Positions 7,045-34,548 of a DNA stretch of 34,846 bases are shown in pieces. The notes below the pieces were generated by a model that ran no database searches, was not told the origin of the DNA, and saw nothing but the letters and a program-made list of their open reading frames with translations. Position 1 is the stretch's first letter, and each line of letters begins with the position of its first letter. A program made the position numbers and the translations under genes. Origin of the DNA: Ruminiclostridium sp. (GTDB lineage Bacteria > Bacillota > Clostridia > Acetivibrionales > DTU013); NCBI GenBank assembly GCA_012027035.1, contig VEPD01000380.1, forward strand, positions 1 to 34,846. The letters run 5' to 3'.

Positions 7045-7095
7045 GCGGCTTTTCCGGTAAAACGGCATTGCCGATTGAAAATAAGGGGGATATGA

Positions 7096-9520: not shown

Positions 9521-9547
9521 GTGAAAAAATAACTTCGCATATAAATT

Positions 9548-9584
9548 TCTGAAAATACAGCCGATTTCCGTCGGTATTTTCAGA
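9548..9584 (+). other. strong hairpin in the kinase/GH38 intergenic region (non-canonical terminator or regulatory stem)
   Basis: Perfect 11-bp arms TCTGAAAATAC (9548-9558) / GTATTTTCAGA (9574-9584). It is followed by an A-run rather than a T-run, so it is not a textbook intrinsic terminator on the + strand. Confidence 0.35.
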
Positions 9585-9670
9585 AAAATGTGAAGTAATA
9601 TTTTCAGTGCTTCTTAAAATAATGTGCCGGTCTCCTCAAAGAACTATTGGGTATATAGCGGAGGATGATT

Positions 9671-12496: not shown

Positions 12497-12571
12497 TTTA
12501 GCAGAATTGGACTTTGATGAATTATTCGGTGCAGAGAAAGTGAAAATTTTCAATACAAGGAGAAGCAGAAA

Positions 12572-13714: not shown

Positions 13715-13729
13715 AAGGGGTGTGGCGCT

Positions 13730-14419: not shown

Positions 14420-14437
14420 CAGAGGAGATGTTCAGAT

Positions 14438-16702: not shown

Positions 16703-16719
16703 AGAGGGGGACGTTAAGG

Positions 16720-20139: not shown

Positions 20140-20227
20140 AGAGTAAGGATAGTTTGTGTAAAAATTGTTTATACAAAGATAATAACAGTTTGTACAAATT
20201 CAAGTTGACTTTTCTAAAGCATAATAT
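20108..20227. repeat. left copy of the long direct repeat flanking the IS (contains the last ~32 nt of the GH3 CDS plus 88 nt downstream)
   Basis: ggaatctcagcgccaggtttgaggtggaatagagagtaagg...ttgacttttctaaagcataatat recurs at 22227-22344 with 3 substitutions and 2 single-nt indels (hand alignment). Confidence 0.9.
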
Positions 20228-20315: not shown

Positions 20316-22067
20316 TCAGAAAGGACTCATTTTTTTCACATCGCCTAGAATTTTTTTAATATCTGCGAGGCATAGCCGTTTTCGTGTAAAATCAATTCCA
20401 AACGCATCACCTAGCTCATCAGTTATTTCATTTCTGTGGCCAAACAAGTAGATGTTCTCATGCTCGTTCATACACTCAATTTGTTTCAAGTTTTCAATAA
20501 CCGTTTCAGCGGAATGCTTTCCTCCAGTCTTCTTCTGGATAATGCGTAAGATCGCTAGTGAAATAAAACAGGTAAGAAAATGCGCATTTATATGCTCATA
20601 TTCGTTTACATAGACAGGGCGCGTCTCAAGATTGCTCTTCGTGATCTTAAACGTCTCTTCGATTTCCCATAAGCCGCGATATGTGTCGATGATTTCGTCA
20701 TTGCTCATTTCATGCTCGCTTGTCACAATAGCATAGTACCCGTCATACTTTTCTTCTTCTTTGATTTTGTCGTAGTTAACGGTGAGGCGCTTGACGATGA
20801 TCTCACCGGTTTCCTTGTCGAATTCCAGATTGTCAACGTATGCGGCGGCACCATACGCGGTAGCTTTGTTATACTTTTTCGGATCCTCTACGAGAGCCTC
20901 CGCTTTGGTGATGACTTCGGCACGCTCAGCCCTAGCTTTAAGGAAATATTTCTTTGACCAGAAGACCACTTGTTTTTCATATACATGCTTTGTATTCTGC
21001 GTTCTCCCACTTTCCATCGTAACGTTGATTTCCCTGCGAATTTGCCTGCTCTTGATCATGAAATCGGTGTCGTCAGTTGCTGGTTTCCCCTTGCTGTCAA
21101 TGTAGCCGGAAGGATTCAGTACATACTCCTTGAATGCTTTCGAACCGCCGCGCACAGAAAAACTGAATACATATCCGTTTCTTGGCTTCTCTGGTTTATC
21201 GCCGATCAGATAGTAGATGTTATCGCCGGTGATGATGCCCATATCGGCGACAACGATGATGCGACCGGTATTGTAGTTCTTCCTGACCTCACCGATGACG
21301 GAACGGAAGGTCTCCTTGTCGAGCCTGTTCCCCGGGAAAAGCTCATAGTGCATCGGCACGCCGCTGGCATCCATCGCAAGCCCCATCTGTATGATTGGTT
21401 TCTTGCGGTTCTGCTTCGCCTTCCCGTACCTTCTGTGTTCGTCCTGTTGGCTGACCTCGAAATAGTAGTTGGTCACGTCATAGTAGACGATGCTTGTGTC
21501 GCTCCCGTATTTCTGCCGTATATTGTCGTACAGGAACCGCTGTAGGTCCTCCGATATCTTGTCGTAATGGGTGAGGGCGCGATACATATCGGCAAGTTCA
21601 AAGTCGAAACGCTCAAAGAATTTTGCTTTGTGGTCGAATGACTTTTTCTTTGAACCGGGATACAGCAAGCGCGACATCACAAGAAGGAGCATGATTGAGT
21701 TTGTGTTGAATTTGAAGCCTTCCTTGGCCATCATGGCTTTGAGGAATTCGTGCAGGCCGAGTTCGTGGTAGACCTTCAACGGCACGGCATAGCCGAGGTT
21801 CTTCATCCCCTCCGCCTTTTCTGGCAGGCACTCGTCCATGTCAATGGTGATTGAAACTTTTCTTCTCGTATTGTCTTCGGCAGTCATTTGTTTGGCGACT
21901 GCCTTGAAGTGAGCGATCGGATCGGGGAATTCCTTCTCAAGTTCGTCAAGATAGCCGAGGGATCGGATGGTAGTTCCGGTACTTTTCTTGGTTGCTTTGT
22001 CCCTGTACCGCTTTTCAATGGACAGGTATGTCCTGCCGTTTTTCCTGTTTGACACGTTAAGGCGCAT
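20316..22067 (-). CDS. IS1634-family DDE transposase (IS4 superfamily)
   Basis: N-terminus MRLNVSNRKNGRTYLSIEKRYRD..SLGYLDELEKEFPDPIAHFK is typical of proteins annotated as IS1634 family. DDE/YREK signatures VYYDVTNYYFE, VVADMGIITGDN and YRGLWEIEETFKITK. This is the only long minus-strand ORF that does not shadow a + strand gene. Confidence 0.85.
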   Translation of the reverse strand: MRLNVSNRKNGRTYLSIEKRYRDKATKKSTGTTIRSLGYLDELEKEFPDPIAHFKAVAKQMTAEDNTRRKVSITIDMDECLPEKAEGMKNLGYAVPLKVYHELGLHEFLKAMMAKEGFKFNTNSIMLLLVMSRLLYPGSKKKSFDHKAKFFERFDFELADMYRALTHYDKISEDLQRFLYDNIRQKYGSDTSIVYYDVTNYYFEVSQQDEHRRYGKAKQNRKKPIIQMGLAMDASGVPMHYELFPGNRLDKETFRSVIGEVRKNYNTGRIIVVADMGIITGDNIYYLIGDKPEKPRNGYVFSFSVRGGSKAFKEYVLNPSGYIDSKGKPATDDTDFMIKSRQIRREINVTMESGRTQNTKHVYEKQVVFWSKKYFLKARAERAEVITKAEALVEDPKKYNKATAYGAAAYVDNLEFDKETGEIIVKRLTVNYDKIKEEEKYDGYYAIVTSEHEMSNDEIIDTYRGLWEIEETFKITKSNLETRPVYVNEYEHINAHFLTCFISLAILRIIQKKTGGKHSAETVIENLKQIECMNEHENIYLFGHRNEITDELGDAFGIDFTRKRLCLADIKKILGDVKKMSPF

Positions 22068-22226
22068 TTTGTCCTCCGTATGTACAATGTGGATTTATAT
22101 ACATTATATCACAGTCGGACATTTTCGTACACAAGAATATTACAAATAATCAAAAAAAACAGCCCGACTCGGCTTTTATTTCAATGGTTCTAACCTTTTG
22201 GTATTCAATTATGCTGTAAAACTCCC

Positions 22227-22344
22227 GGAATCTCAGCGCCAGGTTTGAAGTGGAATAGAGAGTAAGGATAGTTAGTGTAAAATAGTTTATACAAAATAAT
22301 AACAGTTTGTACAAATTCAAGTTGACTTTTCTAAAGCATAATAT
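22227..22344. repeat. right copy of the long direct repeat flanking the IS (includes an orphan copy of the GH3 3' end ..NLSARFEVE*)
   Basis: See 20108-20227. The one substitution inside the duplicated coding part (gag to gaa) is synonymous. Confidence 0.9.
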
Positions 22345-22349
22345 ATAAT
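22322..22349 (+). promoter_or_regulatory. near-consensus sigma-A-type promoter pointing into the AT-rich block
   Basis: TTGACT (22322-22327), 16-nt spacer, TATAAT (22344-22349). The -35 lies inside the direct repeat. In the left repeat copy (TTGACT 20205-20210) the -10 is replaced by IS-end sequence. Confidence 0.5.
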
Positions 22350-22462
22350 GTAATTGTACTACAAAATACAAAATACATAACATAAATAACTTTTTTAATA
22401 TTTGATTTATAAGGTATTAGTGGTAAAGTTTATTAAAGGGGGATATATGGTATAGTTATACC

Positions 22463-22664
22463 TTGACATTTTATATAAATCATTTAAAAAGTGGTGGACA
22501 TATAGGACCGATGCATATTCCTAATCTTTAGTACCTTTATGCAGATGATAGTACAAATCAATGTGTGGACGGCTCTTTTCAGGAATAAGACAGATGTTAA
22601 CGGAGTTACTCTTGATGAAATGATCGGATATGTCTTCATAAGCACAATTATGCATATTATCTGA
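22463..22664 (+). pseudogene. decayed N-terminal fragment of an ABC-2 (ABC2_membrane_6-type) permease, frameshifted and truncated
   Basis: Two frames read (L)TFYINHFKKWWTYRTDAYS* (22463-22524) and CIFLIFSTFMQMIVQINVWTALFRNKTDVNGVTLDEMIGYVFISTIMHII* (22512-22664). Together they mimic the N-terminus of the intact permease at 30318 (MYYFKTTFKNSLVYRWSVFFS...INIMLWRVLYQNNITMISYMTRYTIISNIIMMF). Confidence 0.5.
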
Positions 22665-22861
22665 TGCAATAACGACATGAGGTAGCAGTATTGTATATAT
22701 CGTTTACTGATTTCAAGCACTTATTAGAAGTTGGGGGGTGGGTCCCTTGATGGATGATAAGGATCATACAGCGATTAGCCGTTAGTGTACAAGCCAAGTT
22801 TGGAAAATAATGTAGACGAAAGGGCGAAGCTATGCCTTGACGCCATAAACAAGGGAAGTCG

Positions 22862-23389
22862 ATGTCATATTGGTATATATTTTGGGTCTTGACGGGTCAT
22901 GAGAGGCAAGTTGAAAAAAGTATAATGGATCAATTGTATGATGAGAACATTGTACCTTTCATCCCCATGTTGGAAACTCTTTTTAAAAGAGCCGGTAAAG
23001 TGAAGAAGGAGCTAAACATTATGTTTCCAGGGTATGTGTTTGCTGAATCGGATATGGAAAGCGTAGAGTTCTTACAACGCACACATCGTTTCGTCAGGGC
23101 ATCCAAAGATATTATCGGGATTTTAAGGTATGGCAACTCAGATGAGATTGCTGTCAGGGAAGAAGAGCGAGCAACACTCTTGCGCTTTTGCAATGACGAT
23201 CACTGTATTGAGGCTTCAATGGGTTTTATTGAAGGAGGTAGATTTTATATTGAAAGCGGTCCTATGGCAGGGATGGAAAGCGTTATAAAGGAAATTAACA
23301 GAAAAAAGATGGAAGCATCATTTGAATTGGAGTTTATGGGAAATATAACGCGGTTCACAGTGGGACTTGAGCTATTGAGGAAAATATAA
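22862..23389 (+). CDS. loaP: NusG specialised paralog, LoaP-like processive antiterminator (NGN + KOW)
   Basis: 175 aa. NGN start YWYIFWVLTGHERQVEKSI, MFPGYVFAE, and a KOW-like IESGPMAGMESVIKEI. RBS GGGAAG lies 5 nt upstream. It sits at the head of a long same-strand accessory operon, the typical LoaP context. Confidence 0.7.
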   Translation: MSYWYIFWVLTGHERQVEKSIMDQLYDENIVPFIPMLETLFKRAGKVKKELNIMFPGYVFAESDMESVEFLQRTHRFVRASKDIIGILRYGNSDEIAVREEERATLLRFCNDDHCIEASMGFIEGGRFYIESGPMAGMESVIKEINRKKMEASFELEFMGNITRFTVGLELLRKI

Positions 23390-23618
23390 AAACAAATGGT
23401 TAATGTTATGCAAGTCAGGTATGTTGGCATGCGTTATGTAGAGAGTGTGAAATTAGGCGGGTTCACAGTTTACAAAAATCATATGAAAGGTATCCAAATG
23501 GTATATGAAAAAAAGATTATGGGGCATTATATTCGCCCTAATGGGCGGTCGATTCCAGACCGATTAGGATGTTCTTTTTCTCAAAGGTTTTAAGATGGGA
23601 TCACATCCTTTAAAGTAG

Positions 23619-23779
23619 TAGACAACTGTTTTGACCCACTTAGTTTTATTCTCATAGACTTGCGGGAGATAAAAGTTTAATAACTTATCCAACTATAAAT
23701 GATTTAAATAAAACTGTGGCAATACACTCCATCAAATAGTCAAAGCAATAGGAAAAAATAAAAAGTCCACAGTTGTCTA
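23619..23779 (+). promoter_or_regulatory. long-range perfect 11-bp inverted repeat in the loaP-to-adenylase leader; a candidate promoter lies inside it
   Basis: TAGACAACTGT (23619-23629) and ACAGTTGTCTA (23769-23779), separated by 139 nt. TTGACC (23631-23636), 18 nt, TAGACT (23655-23660) is a weak promoter candidate. Confidence 0.3.
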
Positions 23780-23821
23780 AATCCATTATAGCAGATAATC
23801 ACAATATAGGCGAAAGCCGCG

Positions 23822-23870
23822 CGAATTTGGAAAGATTCAGTCGCTACGCTCCTTCATCTTTCCAAATTCG
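23822..23870 (+). promoter_or_regulatory. perfect 15-bp-stem hairpin 50 nt upstream of the adenylase start (candidate leader RNA element; no U-tract)
   Basis: CGAATTTGGAAAGAT (23822-23836) / ATCTTTCCAAATTCG (23856-23870) with a 19-nt loop. It is followed by ATAGCTTACAAG, which is not a T-run. Confidence 0.5.
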
Positions 23871-23920
23871 ATAGCTTACAAGAAGAGAGCGTAAATATTT
23901 AAAAGGAGCGTATGATTTAG

Positions 23921-25393
23921 TTGTTAACTATATCATACAAGAATAAAATGAAGAATGTTACAACTATGATATGGAATCAATTCAAGAGTAAACCAGAGTC
24001 TATCGCGGTTCAGACAATGAAATTTGTTTATTTATATAGTGATTTAGAGATACTTGTGAAAAAGTATATGACAAAAATATGTTCAGTTACAAATAAACAA
24101 AAGTGTATTATCGGTTTGTATCTTTCACGGAGTATTCATTATATAGCTAGTATGATAGCAGTATTGGCCTGCGGTTGCTCGTTTTTGCCACTTGATAAGA
24201 AAATGCCTTTTGATAGGCTACAAAAGATCATTAAAACTTGCAATGTAAAAATTATTATTGCAGATACTGATGTTGTATTTAATGAAAATCTAGCAATAAC
24301 AACTATAACGGTATCCGATGTTTTGTCAATTGAATCAATTGTAGAAGAAGCGCCGTATATTCAATCGATCGAAAGTAAAGATTTGGCATACGTAATTTTC
24401 ACTTCCGGAAGTACTGGTTTTCCAAAAGGTGTATTGATTTCACACTATGCATTATTTCATTTTTGTAATGTTTTTGTGAATGCTATCACAATGAAAGAAT
24501 ATCAAAGCATATTGGCATTAGCAAATACTGCTTTCGATATGTCTATTGTTGATATGCTCGTATCCCTTACAATCGGTATGCGGATTATTTTAGTGACAGA
24601 TCAAGATTTATTGCACCCAAGGAATATCATAAATATTATTAACAAACTAAAACCAGATATAATTCATTTGACCCCATCTCATTTAATATATCTTAAGGCG
24701 TATCAAAGAGAATTTAATTGGGTTTCTAAGGTAAGACTTATTATATTAGGAGGAGAAAAAGTTAACCAATCGCATTTGGAATTGTTAAAAGCGTATTCGG
24801 GCGTACGTATATTCAATGGGTATGGGCCAACTGAAGCAACAGTATGCTTTTCTATAGGGGAATTAACACATGATGATGGAATTCATGTAGGGAAACCTTT
24901 GGAAGGTATGAAGTTCAAAATAGTAGATGATAAGTTTCAAGAATGCACAGTTGGTGAACTATTATTGACAGGTCCATGTTTATCACTGGGATATATTAAC
25001 AACATTGTTCAAACAAGAGAAAAATTTCGATTTGTGCGTAATAATTTGTATTATTGTACGGGTGACATCGCAACAATTGATAAAAATAATAACTTAATTA
25101 TTTATGGGAGAAGTGATAATCAAGTTAAAATTGCCGGACATAGAGTTGAGCTGGAAGATATTGAAGAAAATATAATAAAGAATATTCCACATATTGTGCA
25201 ATGCATTGTTATTTACAAGGAAAAAGTTCTGAATTGTTATTATAAATCATCATGTTCAATCAACATTAATGATACATATATTAAGCTAAAAGCATTATTA
25301 CCGTCTTACATGATACCATCGGTTTTTACAAAGATTCAAAACTTTTCTTTAACTCCAAATGGGAAAATTGACAGGAAGATATTTATTGAATAA
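23921..25393 (+). CDS. standalone adenylation enzyme (ANL superfamily, DltA/NRPS A-domain-like, amino-acid activating)
   Basis: Core motifs LAYVIFTSGSTGFPKGVLISH (A3), FDMSIVDM (A4, with the Asp that binds an alpha-amino group), NGYGPTEATV (A5), YYCTGDIA (A7), GRSDNQVKIAGHRVELEDIE (A8), LPSYMIPS (A9), LTPNGKIDRK (A10). The start is uncertain: TTG 23921 lies 12 nt after AAGGAG, and in-frame ATGs lie at 23948 and later. Confidence 0.85.
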   Translation: MLTISYKNKMKNVTTMIWNQFKSKPESIAVQTMKFVYLYSDLEILVKKYMTKICSVTNKQKCIIGLYLSRSIHYIASMIAVLACGCSFLPLDKKMPFDRLQKIIKTCNVKIIIADTDVVFNENLAITTITVSDVLSIESIVEEAPYIQSIESKDLAYVIFTSGSTGFPKGVLISHYALFHFCNVFVNAITMKEYQSILALANTAFDMSIVDMLVSLTIGMRIILVTDQDLLHPRNIINIINKLKPDIIHLTPSHLIYLKAYQREFNWVSKVRLIILGGEKVNQSHLELLKAYSGVRIFNGYGPTEATVCFSIGELTHDDGIHVGKPLEGMKFKIVDDKFQECTVGELLLTGPCLSLGYINNIVQTREKFRFVRNNLYYCTGDIATIDKNNNLIIYGRSDNQVKIAGHRVELEDIEENIIKNIPHIVQCIVIYKEKVLNCYYKSSCSININDTYIKLKALLPSYMIPSVFTKIQNFSLTPNGKIDRKIFIE

Positions 25394-25420
25394 AATTTTT
25401 ATATAGTGGAGTTGATTATT

Positions 25421-26389
25421 ATGTCAAAAAATGTATATAAGCTTAATCTGGAGATGTTAAGAAAAAAGGATGAGGACATTATAAGAAAGAATAGATTTTT
25501 GTACCAGAAATTAATCCCAATTATTAGTGATGTCGAAAGCTTTAAAATACCTTATGCTATAATCAAAGGTGAGGCATTATCAATACAAGCATATGGTAAA
25601 AAAGGATATCGTAATTCAAAAGATATTGATATATTAGTTCCAAGAAATTACTGTAAGCAATTTCAAGATATTTTGTTGAATCATGATTTTCAAGAAGCTG
25701 TTTTTGATTCTATGGGAAATCAAAGATCATTGACAAGATATGAAAAAATAATGTTTAGGAGTTCACATCAAATCGTACCATATTTTAAGGATTTCTCAAA
25801 TGAGAGGCTATCATTAGATGTTAATGTTGACATATTTTGGGGTGAATATACAGGAAAGAAGATGGACATAGTTGATTTTCTATCAGATACCGTAAATACC
25901 GAATTTTATGGGTTTACAGCTAGGACACTTTCGCCATTAAAAGCGTTCGTTCATATGTGTCTTAATTATTATAAGGATATGCATGCGTTATACTATATAA
26001 TCAAATCTAATCCTTTTACAGAAAAAGTGTTTCAAGATATATATGAATTCTATAAAAGACAAATTGATGCAGATATTGATAAGTTATTAGTTTACACCAA
26101 AACACATGGACTTAACGAAATAATATACTATATTTTATATTATACAAATCAAATTTTTCGAGACGATTGCCTAACGAAAAATGTTGATAAATTTAAAACG
26201 GAGGCGGCTATATTTGAATTAAATAAATACGGTTTAAACAAGAATGAGCATAAAGAATGGCCTATCAGTTTCTTTGATAGAATGAACCATCCCAATTTAT
26301 ATAGTGTAATTAAATCTGATCTAACTGATATGGACAAACAAAAAATTGAAGCTGTAATAAGCATATTTAAAAAAGAAGTGGATGTTTGA
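25421..26389 (+). CDS. uncharacterised nucleotidyltransferase family protein (NTP_transf_5-like)
   Basis: IKGEALSIQAYGKKGYRNSKDIDILVPRNYCKQFQDILLNHDFQ matches the lKG.al....Y...R...DiDlLv signature. ATG 25421 (RBS GTGGAG 25406-25411) is preferred over the tracked GTG 25406. Confidence 0.6.
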   Translation: MSKNVYKLNLEMLRKKDEDIIRKNRFLYQKLIPIISDVESFKIPYAIIKGEALSIQAYGKKGYRNSKDIDILVPRNYCKQFQDILLNHDFQEAVFDSMGNQRSLTRYEKIMFRSSHQIVPYFKDFSNERLSLDVNVDIFWGEYTGKKMDIVDFLSDTVNTEFYGFTARTLSPLKAFVHMCLNYYKDMHALYYIIKSNPFTEKVFQDIYEFYKRQIDADIDKLLVYTKTHGLNEIIYYILYYTNQIFRDDCLTKNVDKFKTEAAIFELNKYGLNKNEHKEWPISFFDRMNHPNLYSVIKSDLTDMDKQKIEAVISIFKKEVDV

Positions 26390-26500
26390 TGCTGTATAGA
26401 ATTTAATCTTTTTGAAGACAAAGTGATTTCAAAAACTAGCTGGAAGGGTACAAGGCAAAAACTAGACGGAAATACTGTAAATTAAGTAATAAATATCAAA

Positions 26501-26737
26501 TTAGTGGCATGATCTTTGACAGCGGATCGCTTGCCACAATAACTGCCAAACTGTGATAGAATAATAACCGAGGTCAAGCATTAATACGAGCGATCGTATT
26601 ATACCTTGCCGATTGATGGTGGGGCGGCCGTCATCAGCATACAAATGTTTGATAAAGGGAGGCTGGCTGTCCAGGTGAGAAGATATAGTATTGTCAGAGA
26701 CAACCTTTGATACCACAGCCAGCCTGCTTCGCTCCAT
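26501..26737 (-). pseudogene. possible transposase N-terminal remnant inside a GC-rich scar in the AT-rich cluster
   Basis: The 78-aa minus ORF ..YADDGRPTINRQGIIRSLVLMLDLGYYSITVWQLLWQ.. resembles the GRP....llr.l.l...g.S helix-turn-helix start of IS5/IS1182-like transposases. Local G+C is about 30/60 at 26581-26640, versus about 15/60 in neighbouring genes. The family is not securely recognised. Confidence 0.3.
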
Positions 26738-27063
26738 TTAGAGAAAGAATAGCATTTCAAGCAGGAGTTTCTGTTGGTAGCCTTAATGAGGAATCCAGTC
26801 TTGTAGTATAAATCACCTCTGTGGTCAGAATAATGTTAAAAAAAAACATCAATCGATTATTGGAGGCGATTTAAAAATGTCAAGGATAATATGAACTAAA
26901 TATGCAAATCAGTGGTAATTTACTGGTAAATATTTGAGAAGAAAGTGGATAATTTTGGGGTATGAACTTATTATCATATCTGAAATACAAGAATCGAAGG
27001 CTCTATGGAGTTTTCGAGAAGATAAATATACATTACATTAATGTTGGAGGGGGATTATTTATC

Positions 27064-27303
27064 ATGGAAAAGTTGGTTATTGAGAAAGTGTTACTTATTG
27101 TTAATGAGTATCTACCTATGAGTGTTAAGATCAATCAAATAGACGATGACCTAATACACTTCGGTATCGATTCAATAATGCTCATTCGAATAGTTGTTTC
27201 TGTTGAGGAAGCATTTCAAATTGAAATTCCGGATGACAAGTTACTTTTAAGTGAGATGGATACTGTAACTAAAATCGCAAATATAGTCATGTCAACCATA
27301 TAA
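27064..27303 (+). CDS. acyl/peptidyl carrier protein (80 aa)
   Basis: Phosphopantetheine-attachment motif LIHFGIDSIMLIRIV. RBS GGAGGGGG 27046-27053 precedes ATG 27064. The tracked start 26962 would add 34 non-homologous residues. Confidence 0.8.
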   Translation: MEKLVIEKVLLIVNEYLPMSVKINQIDDDLIHFGIDSIMLIRIVVSVEEAFQIEIPDDKLLLSEMDTVTKIANIVMSTI

Positions 27304-27335
27304 TTGTCTAATTTATCTGAGAAGAGGGGAATATT

Positions 27336-28928
27336 ATTAATATTTGCTTAATTAATCCACCGGTATCTACTAATATAAAGTATGTAGATCAATCTATTTA
27401 CAAAAAACAGGTACTACATTTAGGGATTGGATACATTGCATCCTTTTTGGAGTTAAATGGATACAACTGTGAGGTAATGGAATGTCCATGTCTTAACATG
27501 AGCCTAAAAGATGCAGAAGTATTTTTAAAAAAACATAAGTTTGATGTATATGGTATTACTGTATTGGAATTCAATTTAATGTTTGCTATTCATTTAGTGA
27601 AGAAAATTAAAGAGATTAATCCCGATTCATTTATATTCATTGGTGGATACTATCCAACTATTTGTACAGAAGAAGCATTTAGCTTGTTTAAAGACATCAA
27701 TTGTTGTGTATTGGGAGAAGGAGAATTAACTTGCTTAGAAATTATAAAAGAACTGGGATGTAAAAAAAACTTAGACAAGATCGATGGTATTGCATATATT
27801 AAAGATAATACTGTAAGAATTAATAAAAAACGTTTGCTTATTGAAAAACTAGATATATTACCAGCGCCAAAGGTTACATATGTTCCAGATACACTCTGTA
27901 TGCCAATAATATCTACAAGAGGCTGTTATGGTAAATGTTCTTTTTGCTCAATACGTACATATTTCCAAAGTTGCATTGGAGAATCCATAAGAACACGAAG
28001 TCCAGAAAATGTCGTTGAAGAAATGAAAACACTTTATGAGAAACATAGGATACGTTTCTTTTCATTTCAAGATGATATTTTCTTTATAAATTCAAAGGAA
28101 GATAAAGCAAGGATTAATATATTTTGCAAAGGTATTGAAAAATACAACCTTAATGTTAGATTTAGGATATCTTTAAGGTCATCCGAAGTACTGACATGTA
28201 GTGATTCTTTAAGAAGACTAAAGGAAGTTGGACTTGATATTGTGTTTATTGGTGTTGAAAGTTTTGTTGATAGACAGTTGAAATTATTTAATAAAGATAT
28301 ATCTGTCAAAACTAACATTGAGGCAATATTGATGCTACAGCAAATGGATATTAACTACTGTTTAGGGCTTATTCTTTTGGATCCATATCTCAATGTTGAT
28401 GAGTATTTATACAACATACGAGCATTAAAGAATATTAATCATTTTAAGTATTGCAACAATGATACTATACTGACCTCATTTACTTCTCCGTTAGTTGCTT
28501 TTCGCGGATCCCCAATATATGATAAAATTAAATCTAGCAAAATGATATCGAATAATGAGGTTGGTTATATTTTCGCTGACGATAAAGTCCGTGTATTATA
28601 TCAATATATTCGAAAATGGAGAACTATTTTGTATCCATTTGTTAGTATGTGTAACATTTCTGTTTCGTTACCAGATTTTGAAATTAAAAATGAATCAAAG
28701 GATATATTGGTACTGAAGTCATTATTGGCAAGACATGATCTAGATTTTTTAGAAGAATTATGCATAGCGTTTTCATCGAGTAATAATAAAAAGAGCCTCG
28801 ATGATGTTGTATTAAAATATGAAGCACTCATAAATAATATTGATCACAGAGTGATTAAGAAGGTGAATCATGATTCAGAAAGGTACAAAATCAATCGAGA
28901 CAGGAAGACTTTTGTTACGGAATTTTGA
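27336..28928 (+). CDS. B12-binding-domain radical SAM enzyme (class B, methyltransferase-like)
   Basis: CxxxCxxC cluster in ISTRGCYGKCSFCSI. B12-binding domain FIFIGGYYPT..CVLGEGELTCLEIIKEL. Homology-like N-terminus INICLINPP...VLHLGIGYIASFLELNGY begins upstream of the first canonical start (TTG 27447). The frame is open from 27321 and has no ATG/GTG/TTG before 27447. ATT 27336 lies 6 nt after GAGGGG (27324-27329). Confidence 0.8.
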   Translation: MNICLINPPVSTNIKYVDQSIYKKQVLHLGIGYIASFLELNGYNCEVMECPCLNMSLKDAEVFLKKHKFDVYGITVLEFNLMFAIHLVKKIKEINPDSFIFIGGYYPTICTEEAFSLFKDINCCVLGEGELTCLEIIKELGCKKNLDKIDGIAYIKDNTVRINKKRLLIEKLDILPAPKVTYVPDTLCMPIISTRGCYGKCSFCSIRTYFQSCIGESIRTRSPENVVEEMKTLYEKHRIRFFSFQDDIFFINSKEDKARINIFCKGIEKYNLNVRFRISLRSSEVLTCSDSLRRLKEVGLDIVFIGVESFVDRQLKLFNKDISVKTNIEAILMLQQMDINYCLGLILLDPYLNVDEYLYNIRALKNINHFKYCNNDTILTSFTSPLVAFRGSPIYDKIKSSKMISNNEVGYIFADDKVRVLYQYIRKWRTILYPFVSMCNISVSLPDFEIKNESKDILVLKSLLARHDLDFLEELCIAFSSSNNKKSLDDVVLKYEALINNIDHRVIKKVNHDSERYKINRDRKTFVTEF

Positions 28929-29418
28929 GAAAAATGACGTTGAATCATTTTTTAGTTGCTGTGGGAGTCGTGTTATTTTGGGTCAATACATGTCTTGGAC
29001 TCCTCACGGCAACATAAAAATAACAAAAAGAATACTTGATATTATAACTGAATCATATAAAAATGACACATACAATTGGGCAATTGTATCAAAAAATAGA
29101 AATGAAGTTATAGGATCAATTTTTGTAAAGAGTTTATTTCCAGAACATAAATGCTGTGAAATAGGGTACTATTTGTGTGAAGATTTCTGGGGAAAAGGTT
29201 TAATGACAGAGGCGGTTGTGGTGGTTGTTAAGTTTTTATTTAATGAAGTCGGAGTACATAGAGTGCAGGCTTTTCATGATATTCAAAATATTGCATCTGA
29301 ACGGGTATTGCAAAAATCTGGATTTCGTTTAGAAGGTACTATGCGTCACAATCGAATTCGTAAAGATGGATCATTTTCTGATGTGAATATTTGGGCAATA
29401 TTAAACGAAGAAGGGTGA
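28870..29418 (+). CDS. GNAT N-acetyltransferase, RimJ/RimL (Acetyltransf_3) type
   Basis: N-terminus SIETGRLLLRNFEKNDVESFF and acetyl-CoA motif FWGKGLMTEAV. RBS AAGGTGA precedes ATG 28870. It overlaps the radical SAM gene by 59 nt in another frame. Confidence 0.8.
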   Translation: MIQKGTKSIETGRLLLRNFEKNDVESFFSCCGSRVILGQYMSWTPHGNIKITKRILDIITESYKNDTYNWAIVSKNRNEVIGSIFVKSLFPEHKCCEIGYYLCEDFWGKGLMTEAVVVVVKFLFNEVGVHRVQAFHDIQNIASERVLQKSGFRLEGTMRHNRIRKDGSFSDVNIWAILNEEG

Positions 29419-29424
29419 ATTGTA

Positions 29425-30303
29425 TTGATAATACTGGAAAAACATATGGATTGTTTCCAAATGTCCTTTGAATATATTTGTGGGGTATATAATGTTAATT
29501 ATATACCTATATACTTAAATTCGTATAACTTTGACTACGGACTTAAATATTACTATATATATAACTTTGAAACTATATTAAAATATATAGGATTAAGAGT
29601 GAGGGATGTGTATTCTATTTCTAACTCGTATTCAATAAGGGATTTATTGTTAAAACACGAATGTATATTGCTATCAATAGATCAATTCTATTGCCCGTGG
29701 CATAGAGCTTATAAAGTATCACATTTTTGCCACAATTGTGTAATAACTGATTGTGATGATGCAAATGTTACATGTTATGATCCATATATTACTAAAAACA
29801 AAGTATTGTTACCATTTGATTATCTGTACAATGGTGTTGACAAAATTATGCTATTTGAAAAGGAATCAAAGGCTAAACAATTGAAAATATCGGATGTGAT
29901 TAGTTATTTACAAAATAGAATTACTGAATTTAGAGTGGATGAAATTGTAAACAACATAATAATCGATTTTGTGCAAATACAACGGGAATCGGTTACTCAA
30001 AAAGACATATATCTATATCCGATGTTAATATGGCTTAAGAGAATTGCTGATGGAAGATATCAATTATTTTATTTATTAATGCACATTGGTATCGATGAAG
30101 AGACTAATAAATTTTTATTAAAAAAGTTATGGGATTGTGTTGAAATCTGGAGTAAGATATACAATATGATTATCAAGTCATTACTGATGCACAATAACAC
30201 CAATAGTGATATACTTTCAAAAATCATTAACCGTTTAACTGATATTATTAAGAAAGAGGACGAAATTTTGGAGATGGTAAGAGGATTTGCGATATATTAT
30301 TAA
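29425..30303 (+). CDS. hypothetical protein, tentatively BtrH_N-like (papain/C39-fold Cys-His carrier-protein-dependent acyltransferase)
   Basis: N-terminal HMDCFQMSFEYICGVYNV..YLNSYNFDYG and SIDQFYCPWHRAYKVSHFCHNCVITDCDDANVTCYDPY fit my memory of the BtrH_N pattern (h...C......l..., vD.yylP......H..lv.GyD....v.v.DP). No search was possible. TTG start lies 7 nt after AAGGGTGA. Confidence 0.4.
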   Translation: MIILEKHMDCFQMSFEYICGVYNVNYIPIYLNSYNFDYGLKYYYIYNFETILKYIGLRVRDVYSISNSYSIRDLLLKHECILLSIDQFYCPWHRAYKVSHFCHNCVITDCDDANVTCYDPYITKNKVLLPFDYLYNGVDKIMLFEKESKAKQLKISDVISYLQNRITEFRVDEIVNNIIIDFVQIQRESVTQKDIYLYPMLIWLKRIADGRYQLFYLLMHIGIDEETNKFLLKKLWDCVEIWSKIYNMIIKSLLMHNNTNSDILSKIINRLTDIIKKEDEILEMVRGFAIYY

Positions 30304-30317
30304 TAGGAGTAGAGTAT

Positions 30318-31079
30318 ATGTACTATTTTAAAACTACTTTCAAAAACTCTTTGGTATATCGCTGGTCCGTATTTTTTTCAGTGGGTAGGTTAGTATTACT
30401 TATTGCTATTAATATTATGCTGTGGCGAGTGTTATATCAAAACAATATCACTATGATTTCATATATGACAAGGTACACAATAATATCAAATATTATTATG
30501 ATGTTTTATTCTCGGGGGGTACATATGAGACTTGCTGAGAAAGTGACATCTGGAGATTTTGCAATAGATTTGATTCGCCCCGTTAATCTGTTTTTTATGT
30601 TTTGGCAGATAGAGGTATCGGGAATAATCTCTAATTTGTTATTATGTGGATTACCAGTAATTGTGATTTATTTTCCATTTATCATCGGAGATACAGAATA
30701 TTATAATGTTTTGCTTGTAATAATTGCGGTTGTTTTAGGTCATATATTGTTTTTCATGATTTATTATTTGCTGGGTTTGACAGCATTCATAATTATAGAA
30801 ATAGAACCTATAGGGCGATTATTAGATGACACAATTCGGCTTATGGCGGGGGGATTTATCCCATTAGCATTGTTGCCCAGCTACCTTGGTAAAATAGCAA
30901 ATGTCTTACCATTTAGGTATTTATATTCTTTTCCACTAGAGCTTCTCTTAGGCGTGAAAAGTGTTGGCAATATTATGAATAAGTTTATTATATTATGTCT
31001 ATGGATTTTTATTTTTGCATTTATCAATATATGTGTATACAAAATTGCTATCAAGAAAATTGCCATTCAAGGAGGTTAA
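30318..31079 (+). CDS. ABC-2 family transporter permease (ABC2_membrane_6-like), subunit 1
   Basis: Polytopic hydrophobic 253-aa protein. N-terminal YRWSVFFS...LWRVLY..., and GDFAIDLIRPVNL typical of this permease family. RBS AGGAG 30304-30308. Confidence 0.7.
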   Translation: MYYFKTTFKNSLVYRWSVFFSVGRLVLLIAINIMLWRVLYQNNITMISYMTRYTIISNIIMMFYSRGVHMRLAEKVTSGDFAIDLIRPVNLFFMFWQIEVSGIISNLLLCGLPVIVIYFPFIIGDTEYYNVLLVIIAVVLGHILFFMIYYLLGLTAFIIIEIEPIGRLLDDTIRLMAGGFIPLALLPSYLGKIANVLPFRYLYSFPLELLLGVKSVGNIMNKFIILCLWIFIFAFINICVYKIAIKKIAIQGG

Positions 31080-31080
31080 T

Positions 31081-31884
31081 TTGTTAGGAAATATACGTCT
31101 TTACGGCACCTTTTTAAAACTTTCCTTAAAAGGACGAATGGAGTATAAATTTTCGTTTTTTTCAAGCATATTAGCAAACTTTTACTGTTACTTTATAACA
31201 TATTTGACGTACTGGGTGATAACGCAACGATTTGGAACTATAAGCGGGTGGGAATATGAGGATTTAGTGATTTTATATGGACTTAATCTGTTTACTTATT
31301 CTATAGCATGTGCATTGTTTTTTAATAGTGCCCTCCAACTTGAACGGGAGATTACTACTGGCCGTTTAGATGGCTACCTTGTTCGTCCCATGGGACTAAT
31401 CCAACAATTGCTATTAAGTCGAATCGCACTACCTGCGATTGGGCAGATTATAGTGTCATTGATTTTTGTAGTAACTGCATTTATACGAATTAGTTGGAAG
31501 ATAACTGTTTTCGGCTACTTTTATTTCTGTTTATCAGTATTGACCGGAGCATTGCTTCAATCAGGTGCTATGATTTTAATAGGTAGTCTTAGTTTTTGGA
31601 TGTTGCGCACGCGCGATTTAGCTATAACAGTTTATTATGATTTGCGATCCTTTATTAATTACCCGATTGTAATTTTTCCATTAATTATTCGCATTTTACT
31701 AACGTATGTATTTCCTTGGGCGTTCATTAACTATTACCCTTGTCTTATCATCTTGAGCAAAGCGAAGACTCAAGAAGAGTACATCCTTGGGCTATTGTCA
31801 CCTATTGTCTCTATTTTGTTTTTTCTATTGTCACTTTGTGTTTTTCACCATGGATTGCATAGATATTCTAGTAGTGGGAGTTGA
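31081..31884 (+). CDS. ABC-2 family transporter permease, subunit 2
   Basis: TTG 31081 sits 6 nt after AAGGAGG (31069-31075) and 1 nt after the upstream stop. The product ..LKLSLKGRMEYKFSFFSS...TGRLDGYLVRPMGL parallels subunit 1. The tracked ATG 31015 overlaps the previous gene. Confidence 0.7.
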   Translation: MLGNIRLYGTFLKLSLKGRMEYKFSFFSSILANFYCYFITYLTYWVITQRFGTISGWEYEDLVILYGLNLFTYSIACALFFNSALQLEREITTGRLDGYLVRPMGLIQQLLLSRIALPAIGQIIVSLIFVVTAFIRISWKITVFGYFYFCLSVLTGALLQSGAMILIGSLSFWMLRTRDLAITVYYDLRSFINYPIVIFPLIIRILLTYVFPWAFINYYPCLIILSKAKTQEEYILGLLSPIVSILFFLLSLCVFHHGLHRYSSSGS

Positions 31885-32874
31885 GTGATAAGCGTGGAGA
31901 ATATTGTTCAAATCGAAAATATTTCTCGTGAATACAAAGTAGCAAAACGGGATGGTGGTTTTGCTAAATTTATCTTTTCTCGAGAGCATGAAATAGTCTA
32001 TGCCGTTAGAAATATTTCTTTTTCGGTAGCAAAAGGTGAATTAGTTGGCTTATTAGGTCCTAATGGATCAGGAAAATCAACCACAATAAAAATGTTGAGT
32101 GGAATCATTACGCCATCAGCAGGGAAGTTGTATGTCATGGGTAATGACCCATTTAAGAGGCGTAAGCATAATGCTTATAACATCGGAGTTGTATTTGGAC
32201 AACGTTCGCAACTGTGGTGGGATTTACCAATTGGAGATACTTTTTACCTGCTCAAAAAGATTTATAAGATTTCTGATGAGACATACAAGCAAAATCTAAA
32301 TCTATCTAAAAAATATCTTGATCTAGAAAGTATTTGGAATCAACCCGTACGCCAGTTAAGTCTTGGACAACGTATGAGGGCAGAGATCGTTGCTGCCATT
32401 TTGCATAACCCCAAACTGTTGTTTTTAGACGAGCCGACTATTGGATTGGATATCGTAGTGAAGCATCAAATTCGTGAATTTATACTAAAACTTAATAATG
32501 ACTATAAGACCACAGTTATCCTTACATCTCATGACATGAAAGACATTGAGGATATTTGTAAAAAAATTATCCTGGTAGACAAAGGCAGAGTCGCTATTGA
32601 TTGTCACATTGATGAATTGAAACAAATGTATAATAAAACTGCAGTTGTGAAATTGTCACTTAGTAGTGCCGTATCAAACATAGCAATACTTGGTGCAAGG
32701 GGGATGTCTGAATTGGGAGGGAGACAATGGTCATTTCTTGTAGATAAAAGTGTTACAACAACAGGGCGTGTTGTGTTTGAGGTTTCCCAAATTGCGGAGG
32801 TTACGGAGCTAGAAATAATTGAACAAGCAATGGAGGATATTCTGCATGATATATATAAAAACGGTGTGAGATAA
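31885..32874 (+). CDS. ABC transporter ATP-binding protein
   Basis: Walker A GLLGPNGSGKSTT, signature LSLGQRMR, Walker B LLFLDEPTIGLD, H-loop LTSHDM. The GTG start directly abuts the upstream TGA. Confidence 0.9.
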   Translation: MISVENIVQIENISREYKVAKRDGGFAKFIFSREHEIVYAVRNISFSVAKGELVGLLGPNGSGKSTTIKMLSGIITPSAGKLYVMGNDPFKRRKHNAYNIGVVFGQRSQLWWDLPIGDTFYLLKKIYKISDETYKQNLNLSKKYLDLESIWNQPVRQLSLGQRMRAEIVAAILHNPKLLFLDEPTIGLDIVVKHQIREFILKLNNDYKTTVILTSHDMKDIEDICKKIILVDKGRVAIDCHIDELKQMYNKTAVVKLSLSSAVSNIAILGARGMSELGGRQWSFLVDKSVTTTGRVVFEVSQIAEVTELEIIEQAMEDILHDIYKNGVR

Positions 32875-32943
32875 CAAATTACCATATTTATTGGTTAAAT
32901 AATAATCTATGAATGATCATACTACCTACTTGAAAGGATAAGT

Positions 32944-34548
32944 TTGATACACTATTATACATATCCATATCAAACAGGACATGAGATGAAAAATTATAAT
33001 AATGGAACTGTAAGAATCAGTGTAATATCAAATATTGTTTGCGAGAACCTTGAATCGTCACTTCGGGAGTGCTTTGAAGGTTACGAAGTTCTCATCACAT
33101 CAATACAATATTGGGACTATATGAACCATAAGTATATGGAGAATTATGCATGCTCAGACCTGATTATTGTATGGTTGAATTTTGAATTCCTGTTTCCAGA
33201 TGCTTACAATCAAGATCATCGCAAACAAGTTGAATCGGATGCTTTTATAAACGACGTTACAAAACTGTGTGCAAGTATAACTGAAAATCTTACTAATGTA
33301 TCGAATTGTAAAGTTTATTGGCTCTTATTTGAGGATTATTTTTTACCAATCCGCCAAATAATTGGGTATGTATACAATTTTTCTATAGTAGATATTTTAA
33401 ATCAAAATTTTGTTAATGTGCATAACCAGCATGTTTTTTGTGTAAATACGAAGGATATTATTGCTGAAATAGGTATACAAAATGCATTTGACAAAAAAAG
33501 TAAATATCGCTGGAGTTCTCCATATTCAAGGGAATTAATCAGCACAGTGGGAAGAGAAATTTATAAACAATATAAAATCGAAAATAGTATGACAAAAAAA
33601 TGTCTTGTTTTGGATTGCGACAATGTTTTATGGGGTGGCATATTAGCGGATGATGGAATTGAAAATATAAAGCTTGGTAGTACTGGATATGGACGAATTT
33701 TTCAAGATTTCCAACGATTTTTGCTATATCTATATAATCATGGCGTTACTCTTTCAATAGTAAGTAAGAACAATTCGAAAGACGTCCTAGATGTATTTAC
33801 AGGACATAGCGACATGATATTGCATGAAAACCATATAGCTTGTTTTCAAATCAACTGGGATAATAAACCGGATAACATTAGAATAATATCAAAATCCTTA
33901 AATATTGGACTTGACCAAATGGTATTTGTTGATGATATGCAATTTGAGATCGAAGCAGTGAGGAGCATGATACCCGAGGTTACTACTATTCTTTTCGAAC
34001 ACAATAGTATTTACGATATATTATCATGTTTTAATTTGAAAATTGATACGAATCTCGCGGATATTGAAAGACGTAATATGACATACCGTACTAATAATTT
34101 TCGAGAGACATTAAAGGCTCAATATTCAGATTATGTAGAATTTATAAATGCGTTAGAAATGAAGATCGATATTCACGAGGCTAAGCCTATTGAATATAAT
34201 CGCATATCAGAGCTTACTCAGCGTACTAATAAATGTACGAATGGAAGACGCTATACAGTGGCTGAAATTCTGCAGAGGATCACCAGAAATGATGTTACAT
34301 TATACGCTCTGACATTATCTGACCGTTACTCTGATTTAGGTCTTGTTGGTTCATTTGAAGTTGAAGACAATACACTAACTGTCTTTAGTCTATCATGTAG
34401 AGCATTGGGAAGGGAGATTGAGAACAGAATGCTAGAATATATAGCTTTAAAACATAAAATAAATTATATATCATTTTCATATACCCAAAAGAATAATGAA
34501 ATAAGAACTTTATTTGTGCAAATATTTCCTGATGCTACGTTTTTATAG
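32944..34548 (+). CDS. FkbH-like HAD-superfamily IIIC enzyme (glyceryl-carrier-protein-forming type) with GNAT-like C-terminal region
   Basis: HAD motifs CLVLDCDNVLWGG (DxDx[T/V]), LSIVSKNN, MVFVDDMQFEIE. C-terminal LSCRALGREIENRMLEYI. The N-terminal VRISVISNIV... region is typical of full-length FkbH-like proteins. The start is TTG 32944 or ATG 32986. Confidence 0.75.
   Translation: MIHYYTYPYQTGHEMKNYNNGTVRISVISNIVCENLESSLRECFEGYEVLITSIQYWDYMNHKYMENYACSDLIIVWLNFEFLFPDAYNQDHRKQVESDAFINDVTKLCASITENLTNVSNCKVYWLLFEDYFLPIRQIIGYVYNFSIVDILNQNFVNVHNQHVFCVNTKDIIAEIGIQNAFDKKSKYRWSSPYSRELISTVGREIYKQYKIENSMTKKCLVLDCDNVLWGGILADDGIENIKLGSTGYGRIFQDFQRFLLYLYNHGVTLSIVSKNNSKDVLDVFTGHSDMILHENHIACFQINWDNKPDNIRIISKSLNIGLDQMVFVDDMQFEIEAVRSMIPEVTTILFEHNSIYDILSCFNLKIDTNLADIERRNMTYRTNNFRETLKAQYSDYVEFINALEMKIDIHEAKPIEYNRISELTQRTNKCTNGRRYTVAEILQRITRNDVTLYALTLSDRYSDLGLVGSFEVEDNTLTVFSLSCRALGREIENRMLEYIALKHKINYISFSYTQKNNEIRTLFVQIFPDATFL

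Follow-up and report, generated by a model that had tools for sequence, protein, structure and literature searches.

In the closthioamide pathway of Ruminiclostridium cellulolyticum, the papain-like ligase CtaG was shown experimentally to work by a ping-pong mechanism with Cys11, His128 and Asp144 (PMC12865890): it takes the acyl group carried by one carrier protein (CP) and transfers it to the amine of the substrate that a second CP carries (PMC12865890; PMC7183216). BtrH, AsbE and MllDE are recognised homologues of CtaG (PMC12865890; PMC7183216), and the petrobactin (AsbC/AsbD/AsbE) and butirosin (BtrI/BtrJ/BtrH) pathways follow a similar route, in which a loader charges a CP and a free amine then receives the acyl group from a CtaG-like transferase (PMC12865890). 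Here, we describe an island of 11 genes, all on the plus strand, within a window of 34,846 nt (contig VEPD01000380.1 of a Ruminiclostridium sp.), in which all coordinates are given. The island could encode a thiotemplated pathway of the CtaG/BtrH/AsbE kind that is independent of nonribosomal peptide synthetases (NRPS), a reading based on sequences and structural models that we judge to have about an even chance of being correct. The enzymology is of a known kind, while the product and the combination with FkbH, a nucleotidyltransferase of the NTP_transf_5 family (NTP5), a B12-binding radical SAM (rSAM) enzyme and LoaP are undescribed in the literature searched, where no characterised cluster with this gene combination was found.

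The proposal is based on one PP-binding CP, two enzymes of CP-loading families (the adenylase and FkbH) and a papain-fold ligase with a Cys-His-Asp triad:

23921 to 25393, plus strand: stand-alone amino-acid adenylation enzyme (A domain), 490 amino acids; TTG start at 23921, alternative ATG at 23948.
27064 to 27303, plus strand: sole CP of the island, 79 amino acids, PP-binding by Pfam, with the serine in a GIDS motif.
29425 to 30303, plus strand: CtaG/BtrH/AsbE-like papain-fold acyl-S-CP ligase or transacylase (predicted), 292 amino acids; TTG start at 29425.
32944 to 34548, plus strand: FkbH-family enzyme with a HAD-IIIC phosphatase domain and an FkbH C-terminal domain; alternative ATG at 32986.

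The ligase had been called a BtrH-like Cys/His protein in an initial annotation made from the sequence alone, and this assignment was upheld. Hidden Markov models (HMMs) of Pfam and NCBIfam confirmed the other families named in that annotation, whereas the ligase alone stayed below the threshold of BtrH_N (PF14399), with 13.1 bits against a gathering score of 29.7 (E=0.11-0.12). Word-indexed searches with the protein or with a four-sequence profile had retrieved a single protein apart from the query, suggesting an orphan; this was rejected because an exhaustive HMMER search with the ligase gave full-length matches to 719 cluster representatives at E<=1e-3. Among the 60 closest homologues, BtrH_N was found in 41 (best E=1.3e-12), Peptidase_C39_2 in 28 and DUF4872 in 4, BtrH itself being composed of BtrH_N and a C-terminal DUF4872. 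Residues C3, W85, H96 and D112 (numbered from 29446) were invariant in these 60 homologues, and the triad C3/H96/D112 becomes Cys10-His103-Asp119 when counted from the TTG at 29425.

An AlphaFold2 model built on a deep homologue alignment (predicted local distance difference test (pLDDT) 89.8, predicted template-modelling score 0.87) replaced an earlier model from a two-sequence alignment, which was discarded (pLDDT 36). The model shares the bipartite architecture of CtaG, with an N-terminal alpha/beta part (strands 50-139) and a C-terminal helical bundle (helices 148-284). When it was compared with the PDB by Foldseek, only AziU2/U3 and CtaG were strong matches (template-modelling scores 0.56-0.66, probability 1.0), followed by C39 peptidase domains, and CtaG was the best match with a ligase function, although the structure-aligned sequence identity to CtaG was only 12-14%. 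From the homologues and the model, a role as an acyl-S-CP transferase or ligase is credible. With the BtrH-like identity of this protein, the island falls into a mechanistic class that has already been described. The initial statement that the gene set fits none of the known NRPS, polyketide synthase (PKS) or ribosomally synthesised, post-translationally modified peptide (RiPP) classes was therefore too strong, as thiotemplated assembly by papain-like ligases has already been described (PMC7183216; PMC12865890).

The CP was 41-53% identical to CPs encoded next to FkbH genes in related loci of other genomes and 34-39% identical to those next to A domains, and it is the orthologue of the FkbH-neighbouring CPs. 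No second CP was found in the island by a six-frame HMM scan; the single PP-binding CP, together with enzymes of loader families, bears out the description of the set as carrier-protein dependent. A DltA/DltC identity of the adenylase and CP was rejected, since the adenylase scored 256-268 bits with the DltA models (cut-offs 476-560) and the CP 19.8 bits with the DltC model (cut-off 68), both far below the curated values; the CP additionally gave a weak AsbD match. The low DltA scores indicate an amino-acid adenylase rather than a DltA orthologue. The adenylase matched AMP-binding at E=1.8e-57 and fell just below the cut-off of TIGR01733 (290.6 against 317), and motifs A3, A4 (FDMS, with the Asp235 equivalent), A5, A7, A8 and A10 (PNGKIDRK, with the Lys517 equivalent) were readable. 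A domains with equivalents of Asp235 and Lys517 activate alpha-amino acids. Per-domain scores against the A domains of LgrA and GrsA were 151-183 bits. A 322-bit match to LgrA combined the scores of two separate domains (151 + 169.5 bits) and consequently gives no evidence of specificity for glycine or valine, and a hand-read code of approximately D-M-V-S-I-G-G-V-C-K, which is not known to match any established code, was not used.

FkbH enzymes convert 1,3-bisphosphoglycerate to glyceryl-S-acyl carrier protein (ACP), and the glyceryl-S-ACP of the FkbH/OzmB type feeds methoxymalonyl-ACP, tetronates and the glycerate caps at the N-termini of certain nonribosomal peptides. The island enzyme is like this type in scoring above the cut-off of TIGR01686 (221.8 against 146.65 bits; HAD-IIIC 57.6 against 35.75), in its intact HAD-IIIC motif set and in having a dedicated CP, whose gene adjoins FkbH in related loci and precedes it by 5.6 kb in the window. 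HAD motifs I-IV (D224/D226 in LDCDNVLW, S274, K308 and D330/D331) and Cys485 (SLSCR) were invariant in the same 12 sequences. In contrast to the FkbH/OzmB type, the island has no partner genes of the PKS, FabH-like, dehydrogenase or O-methyltransferase kind. A total of 955 homologues were found, and gut and rumen metagenomes contain hundreds of relatives that are 50-56% identical. The subfamily formed with these gut-anaerobe relatives is uncharacterised, with NTP5 as its constant partner, and no paper naming NTP5 alongside FkbH was found in the literature searched.

In the pathway that we propose, the adenylase would make aminoacyl-S-CP and FkbH would make glyceryl-S-CP from 1,3-bisphosphoglycerate. 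The CtaG-like ligase would take one of these acyl groups onto its cysteine and hand it to an amine, which could be that of a CP-bound aminoacyl group, in the manner of CtaG, or that of a free acceptor, in the manner of BtrH and AsbE. The outcome would be a small N-acylated product derived from an amino acid, for example an N-glyceroyl-aminoacyl unit. The B12-rSAM enzyme could C-methylate an unactivated carbon, the RimL-type GNAT could acetylate a free amine, either as tailoring or for self-protection, and the ABC-2 transporter could export the product, with LoaP keeping RNA polymerase running through the 12-kb operon, including a foreign spacer of 674 nt. Methylation, N-acetylation and the off-loading order, as given in the initial annotation, are steps that we can only infer. 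Pfam and NCBIfam scans found no phosphopantetheinyl transferase (PPTase) domain in any island ORF, and this enzyme is presumably supplied by the host.

The closthioamide (cta) pathway is similar to the island in being thiotemplated, in belonging to an anaerobic Firmicute and in using stand-alone enzymes without condensation (C), ketosynthase (KS) or thioesterase (TE) domains; such domains were said to be missing from the island, and the scans of its open reading frames (ORFs) detected none. Both have an adenylate-forming loader (CtaI in cta), a small CP (CtaH/CtaE) and a Cys-His-Asp ligase (CtaG). However, cta has two peptidyl carrier proteins (PCPs) and the island one, the island is without the ATP-grasp enzyme CtaD, the decarboxylase CtaF, the thioamide synthetase CtaC and the transglutaminase CtaJ, and FkbH, NTP5, B12-rSAM, GNAT and LoaP are not among the described cta components (PMC12865890; PMC7183216). 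The island trio of adenylase, CP and ligase also parallels AsbC/AsbD/AsbE, but its loader is an amino-acid A domain, whereas AsbC is an aryl-acid ligase and BtrJ an ATP-grasp enzyme, and, unlike the petrobactin and butirosin pathways, the island has no siderophore synthetase or aminoglycoside genes.

The other features of the island are as follows:

22322 to 22349, plus strand: candidate promoter, sigma-70-like TTGACT-16-TATAAT, the best site upstream of loaP (11/12 matches).
22862 to 23389, plus strand: LoaP-type NusG paralogue, 175 amino acids, a processive antiterminator by family (NF033641; NusG N-terminal domain).
23390 to 23920, plus strand: leader of 531 nt between the LoaP and A-domain genes.
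25406 to 26389, plus strand: NTP_transf_5 (PF14907) nucleotidyltransferase, NTP5 (Pfam, 83.6 bits).
26390 to 27063, no strand: intergenic stretch of 674 nt between the NTP5 and CP genes, with a 78-amino-acid antisense ORF.
27336 to 28928, plus strand: B12-binding rSAM enzyme of class B type, about 530 amino acids (B12-binding and Radical_SAM, both above gathering scores).
28870 to 29418, plus strand: RimL/RimJ-type GNAT acetyltransferase, 182 amino acids (Acetyltransf_3, 105.8 bits).
30318 to 31079, plus strand: ABC-2 permease 1 (ABC2_membrane_6), 49% identical to the permease of the related locus L043.
31081 to 31884, plus strand: ABC-2 permease 2 (ABC2_membrane_6), 50% identical to that of L043; start as on a Logan contig.
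31885 to 32874, plus strand: ABC transporter ATPase (Pfam).

The mean GC content was 45.6% over positions 1-20,139; between approximately 22,230 and 34,700 it was 32%, and beyond this tract it was 52%. As both edges of this low-GC tract are inside the window, it represents a complete foreign island of 12.4 kb (32% GC in a 46% GC genome). Its 11 ORFs are intact and tightly spaced. The gene order on a single strand and the domain identities listed in the initial annotation were reproduced with Pfam and NCBIfam, and all of its intergenic gaps (32, -59, 6, 14, 1 and 0 nt) were recovered, the 32-nt gap requiring an ATT start at 27336. Packing on one strand, the sharp compositional boundary and the recurrence of gene sub-sets in about 100 other genomes indicate that the island is more than a chance assembly. 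Only one second copy of the island was found, on a 10-kb Logan contig from SRR8536199, and a search through the flanking GH3 gene, whose best relative was 51% identical, found no empty insertion site. Rfam and terminator scans of the island gave nothing above chance.

To compare gene contexts, 79 loci around FkbH relatives were fetched from other genomes (L-numbers denote such related loci) and ORFs were clustered for the 48 with closer FkbH relatives (L036-L084); a reciprocal set of 66 loci was anchored on NTP5. NTP5 and a CP were each encoded in 33 of the 48 FkbH-anchored loci, an ABC exporter of about 600 amino acids in 30 and a BtrH-like protein, when both of its subtypes are counted, in about 30. 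In the NTP5-anchored set, FkbH was present in 49/66 loci, ABC exporters in 46/66 and a CP in 40/66, and the CP and FkbH genes had NTP5 as their most consistent companion. The usual order elsewhere is NTP5-CP-FkbH, and a gene of a 340-amino-acid family, F5_340 (18/48), usually follows just downstream of FkbH. This family is BtrH-like as well: BtrH_N matched 11 of 29 proteins sampled from F5_340, the window-type ligases and other candidates; F5_340 and the ligase subtype of the window were aligned by hhalign with 94% probability, and the HMMs of each matched members of the other.

NTP5, CP, FkbH, a BtrH-like protein and exporters therefore form a real recurrent unit, found in Clostridia, Bacteroidales, Anaerolineae and Paenibacillus. 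The gene set had been expected to be co-conserved, and this was true for the core of NTP5, CP and FkbH and for the BtrH-like and exporter genes, but not for the full set or the GNAT. As the core is co-conserved elsewhere, a random juxtaposition, which the initial annotation had named as the finding that would overturn it, can be rejected for the core. LoaP (3/48), the B12-rSAM (6/48), an A domain (6/48) and the ABC2_membrane_6 pair (4/48) were each found in few related loci only, a VOC/glyoxalase gene occurred in 9/48 and the GNAT in 0/48.

The ligase subtype of the window was also found in L062 and, as 'F21' proteins, in L036 and L044, and it adjoins an A-domain gene in seven of eight other loci (L036, L044, L062, L064, L115 (twice), L116 and L117). 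The island is thus a mosaic of two recurrent sub-modules, FkbH/CP/NTP5 and adenylase/ligase, with one CP between them. Beyond these sub-modules it carries the B12-rSAM, which some relatives share, the GNAT, which none does, the ABC-2 exporter and LoaP.

Several variants of these arrangements were observed. In L115 (8150-20954), a cluster from a metagenome, the genes encode, in order, A-PCP, ligase, A-PCP, ligase, A, CP and CP. They are preceded by an asparagine-synthase-like gene and followed by genes for a radical SAM enzyme, a methyltransferase, a single C domain that stands alone and a B12-rSAM; by its gene content the cluster looks like a multi-step peptide assembly line that is free of condensation domains. 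L043 has NTP5, the closest ABC-2 permeases, FkbH, a BtrH-like protein, no SPASM-type rSAM gene and, in place of the A domain, an aminoacyl-tRNA synthetase-like ligase. This 'amino acid–[acyl-carrier-protein] ligase' (NF005479-like, below cut-off) is encoded at 6340-9971 together with an 828-amino-acid protein with a C-terminal carrier domain, which stands in for the free CP, and the pair is predicted to be an independent route to aminoacyl-S-CP. Beside the cassette of L044 (Bacteroidales), the stretch 11575-15939 carries a GT9-like heptosyltransferase gene and HldE-, GmhA- and GmhB-like genes, as read from the sequence, which would suggest a heptosylated product. In L063, a lookalike of the mobile domain of phosphoenolpyruvate-utilising enzymes (4264-4593) and a 354-amino-acid protein without an NCBIfam match, together spanning 4264-5617, precede an NTP5/ABC-2/CP/FkbH cassette and hint at a phosphotransfer step in some variants.

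The contexts of the relatives also raise the possibility that the island is an orphaned RiPP-tailoring cassette. In its ancestral setting, NTP5-CP-FkbH-BtrH-like, with or without an A domain and a B12-rSAM, would have decorated a sactipeptide-like ribosomal peptide; with the precursor, PqqD and rSAM-SPASM genes missing here, the enzymes would now modify, in trans, a peptide from another part of the genome or would be left without a substrate. Genes for rSAM-SPASM enzymes were found in 23/48 FkbH-anchored and 38/66 NTP5-anchored loci, for HprK-like kinases in 12 and 27 and for S24 peptidases in 7 and 23, respectively. In these RiPP-type relatives, the rSAM-SPASM enzymes have the StsB sactipeptide maturase as best NCBIfam match, a PqqD-like protein of 90 amino acids has the HPr-rel-A PqqD chaperone, an HprK-related kinase A is also present and the peptidase is of S24/S26 type. 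Short Cys-rich ORFs are located between the PqqD and rSAM-SPASM genes (L071:1543-1710, L077:1689-1850, L053:2789-3220, L061:1196-1381 and L038:539-643), that of L071 reading MDYVSPVMRSFSKEDIRNNIIASATCVKAFCSAEHTFTCGVGHVF… and that of L053 containing three tandem copies. They share a leader of the M-x-Y-x-x-P-x-(V/I)-x-x-x-S-x-E type and occur in the same clusters as NTP5-CP-FkbH. From these features, they look like precursors of an undescribed family of sactipeptide-like RiPPs with a thiotemplated tailoring module. Cultured strains with the cassette in a RiPP cluster include Paenibacillus silagei DSM 101953 (L073/L213), Huintestinicola butyrica (L050/L214) and Fumia xinanensis NSJ-33 (L242/L247). 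The cassette-bearing RiPP clusters themselves appear to be undescribed, and no paper on FkbH with BtrH, FkbH with RiPP or radical SAM, or FkbH with sactipeptide, lasso peptide or PqqD was found in the literature searched.

Among the related loci, relatives of the island rSAM were detectable only in RiPP-type clusters, and such clusters in many Clostridia share orthologous NTP5, CP, FkbH and B12-rSAM with the island. In addition, the accessories of these clusters (PqqD, HprK-like kinase and NTP transferase) can be compared with PsmK/PsmN of the lasso peptide pseudomycoidin. PsmN, an uncharacterised NTP transferase, is required for the addition of a hexose to this peptide in its phosphorylated form (PMC6993621); as a possible member of PF14907, it is the only functional lead for NTP5. 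In contrast to the relatives, which have a precursor, a PqqD-type RiPP recognition element and an rSAM-SPASM maturase, the 34.8-kb window has none of the three, nor an HprK or S24 gene, and the island ends inside the window, with the GC content back to 52% after about 34,700. Inspection of the small ORFs of the window gave no credible precursor-like candidate, in agreement with the initial annotation, which had reported neither a PPTase gene nor an obvious precursor peptide. The ligase subtype of the window travels with A domains and not with SPASM, and bare cassettes were found among housekeeping genes in L046 (two ABC exporters, NTP5, CP, FkbH and a 534-amino-acid BtrH-like protein) and likewise in L042. 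As these carry no RiPP genes, the cassette is not obligatorily tied to RiPPs, and we regard an orphaned RiPP cassette as unlikely, though worth keeping in mind.

For a thiotemplated small-molecule pathway, the remaining genes would provide tailoring and export. The rSAM enzyme has an N-terminal B12-binding domain and an rSAM core with the CxxxCxxC motif CYGKCSFC, and no NCBIfam equivalog reached its cut-off. Homologues with 26-29% identity were present in five related RiPP-type loci, and a locus search with the rSAM found only relatives that were no more than 32% identical and stood in unrelated contexts. Upstream of 27447 the frame contains no canonical start codon (ATG, GTG or TTG), which leaves the conserved N-terminal 37 codons without one. 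Translated from 27321, the frame yields an N-terminal part with homology to that of related enzymes, and a Shine-Dalgarno-like GAGGGG is found 7 nt upstream of the start. The ATT at 27336 (or 27333) is probably the start, and could be either a rare start codon or the result of a recent ATG-to-ATT mutation. The GNAT gene overlaps the rSAM gene by 59 nt, and no record of its exact sequence was found elsewhere.

In NTP5, D68, D70 and D133 were invariant. A profile of the family had no significant match to PDB sequences, and PF14907 was mentioned only as 'uncharacterized' in the literature searched. The 674-nt stretch downstream of NTP5 had been described as an IS-like scar; it was found to be just a patch of 45% GC (approximately 26500-26800) within DNA of 28-30% GC, with no similarity to anything in Pfam or plasmid-DNA searches. 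In related loci, a VOC/glyoxalase gene often occupies this position.

LoaP scored 150.4 bits with NF033641 (cut-off 125), and the UpxY, NusG and RfaH models stayed far below their own cut-offs. As in the dfn and mln operons of Bacillus velezensis, a LoaP-family gene lies directly upstream of, and on the same strand as, a long operon for specialised metabolism with a long 5' leader (PMC12691694). The leader length of about 530 nt given initially agrees with the 531 nt measured. The island operon differs from dfn and mln in being only 11 kb long and non-PKS, and it carries its own 14-bp hairpin instead of a UNCG hairpin. The stretch 23809-23869, 52 nt upstream of the adenylase start, begins with a mini-hairpin (GGC-GAAA-GCC), after which 23823-23836 pairs perfectly with 23856-23869 in a stem of 14 bp with a 19-nt loop and no U-tract; the folding energy is -27.2 kcal/mol (z = -3.7). 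This hairpin could be a site for LoaP or for another regulator, distinct from the dfn UNCG hairpin. In the leader, no canonical or obvious NusA-type terminator was predicted and no Rfam match was found. LoaP of B. velezensis needs a hairpin with a UNCG loop, followed by a NusA-dependent terminator, and the hairpin is essential for antitermination in dfn (PMC12691694). By its position, control of the island operon by LoaP is plausible. The number of sigma-70-like sites in the loaP region was at chance level.

Next to the island, an IS1634-family transposase gene is encoded on the minus strand (20316-22067). On either side of it, at 20108-20227 and 22227-22344, are direct repeats that are about 120 nt long and 96-98% identical. 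They resemble the target duplication of IS1634, which is typically of unusual length, and the promoter-like site of loaP sits in the right copy. Such a duplication around the insertion sequence (IS) indicates that the IS entered between the GH3 gene and loaP when the island was already there. The genes in 1-20,139 encode carbohydrate-active enzymes (GH38, GH95, GH3, CBM6 and others). The GH3-side neighbour (16681-20139) is an unusual fusion of 1152 amino acids, with an N-terminal pyridoxal phosphate-dependent domain resembling SelA and class V aminotransferases and a GH3 beta-glucosidase; its closest full relative, from a metagenome-assembled genome of Cellulosilyticaceae, aligns over the GH3 part only (51% identity). 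Among 185,579 species genomes, none was a close representative of the host.

Another possibility is a Dlt-like decoration of the cell envelope, in which aminoacyl and/or glyceroyl groups would be attached to a surface polymer or lipid and the ABC-2 transporter would move the carrier or product across the membrane. The Dlt system likewise has a stand-alone adenylase and a small CP, the island adenylase has a DltA-like architecture with DltA models among its best NCBIfam matches, and in the Bacteroidales loci L036 and L044 glycosyltransferase, pyruvyl-transferase and ADP-heptose genes lie beside the cassette. ABC-2 transporters commonly export glycopolymers, and NusG paralogues of the LoaP class also head polysaccharide operons. 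Those of the UpxY class are reported to head capsule and polysaccharide operons (PMC11685472). However, neither DltB (MBOAT) nor DltD, and no glycosyltransferase, polymerase or flippase, is encoded in the island, and the adenylase reaches only about half of the DltA equivalog cut-offs. The permeases belong to ABC2_membrane_6 (PF06182), which differs from the Wzm/TagG type, and the characterised homologues of the ligase are all from secondary metabolism. Envelope decoration is therefore considered improbable.

We consider it very improbable that the island is the remnant of a decaying set, or a chance mosaic of genes gained by horizontal transfer, and has ceased to make a product, as its 11 ORFs are intact, the catalytic motifs are kept (A-domain cores, CP serine, CxxxCxxC, Cys-His-Asp and HAD I-IV), the junctions are operon-like (including 0, 1 and -59 nt) and GAGGGG precedes the ATT start, even though a 32% GC insert lies in a 46% GC genome beside an IS1634 element whose target duplication is long, a 45% GC patch is found inside the operon, the rSAM has no canonical start codon, the usual adjacency of CP and FkbH is broken by 5.6 kb, only one other copy is known (on the 10-kb metagenome contig) and the full set is not conserved.

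An NRPS-independent thiotemplated pathway therefore has to be weighed against a number of points that do not favour it. The two loaders share one CP, whereas related A-domain loci usually have a second one, and the island has neither a release enzyme nor a PPTase. The complete gene set was found in none of the 48 FkbH-anchored and 66 NTP5-anchored loci, a GNAT homologue was absent from every related locus examined in both sets, and F5_340, the ligase subtype that partners FkbH elsewhere, is absent from the island. About half or more of the related NTP5-CP-FkbH cassettes are in RiPP-type clusters, and the natural acceptor may thus be a ribosomal peptide. A dfn-type UNCG hairpin was absent from 22100-23930 in a simple T-N-C-G scan with closure of at least 4 bp, which a divergent hairpin could escape. 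The IS flanking the island, the higher-GC patch that splits the operon and the non-canonical rSAM start also mean that the island may be decaying.

More tentatively, and as a proposal that we consider more doubtful than probable, NTP5-CP-FkbH-BtrH-like could be an unrecognised and widespread module of gut anaerobes that attaches a glycerate-derived unit, and an aminoacyl unit as well when an A domain is present, to acceptors. It would mostly operate in RiPP/thiotemplate hybrids built with sactipeptide-like peptides, with the island as a RiPP-independent offshoot making a new exported small molecule, and NTP5 would perform new chemistry on the CP-bound (phospho)glyceryl unit or on the acceptor.

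The CtaG-like papain-fold ligases are a class of ribosome-independent, thiotemplated catalysts of peptide-bond formation that was defined only between 2020 and 2026 and has four assigned pathways. The island and about 100 related loci point to such ligases being common among the uncultured Clostridia and Bacteroidales of the gut, where they are coupled to FkbH loaders, an uncharacterised nucleotidyltransferase and often radical-SAM RiPP machinery. Automated rules that recognise biosynthetic gene clusters by their KS, C or TE domains may overlook clusters of this kind. A greater surprise than the island itself comes from beyond the window, in the form of a widespread and apparently unreported cassette that ties FkbH/CP chemistry to sactipeptide-like RiPP clusters of gut anaerobes. 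If the proposed pathway is true, the island would represent a new product family of the gut and rumen microbiome, give a first functional handle on PF14907 and provide new parts for engineering assembly lines free of condensation domains.

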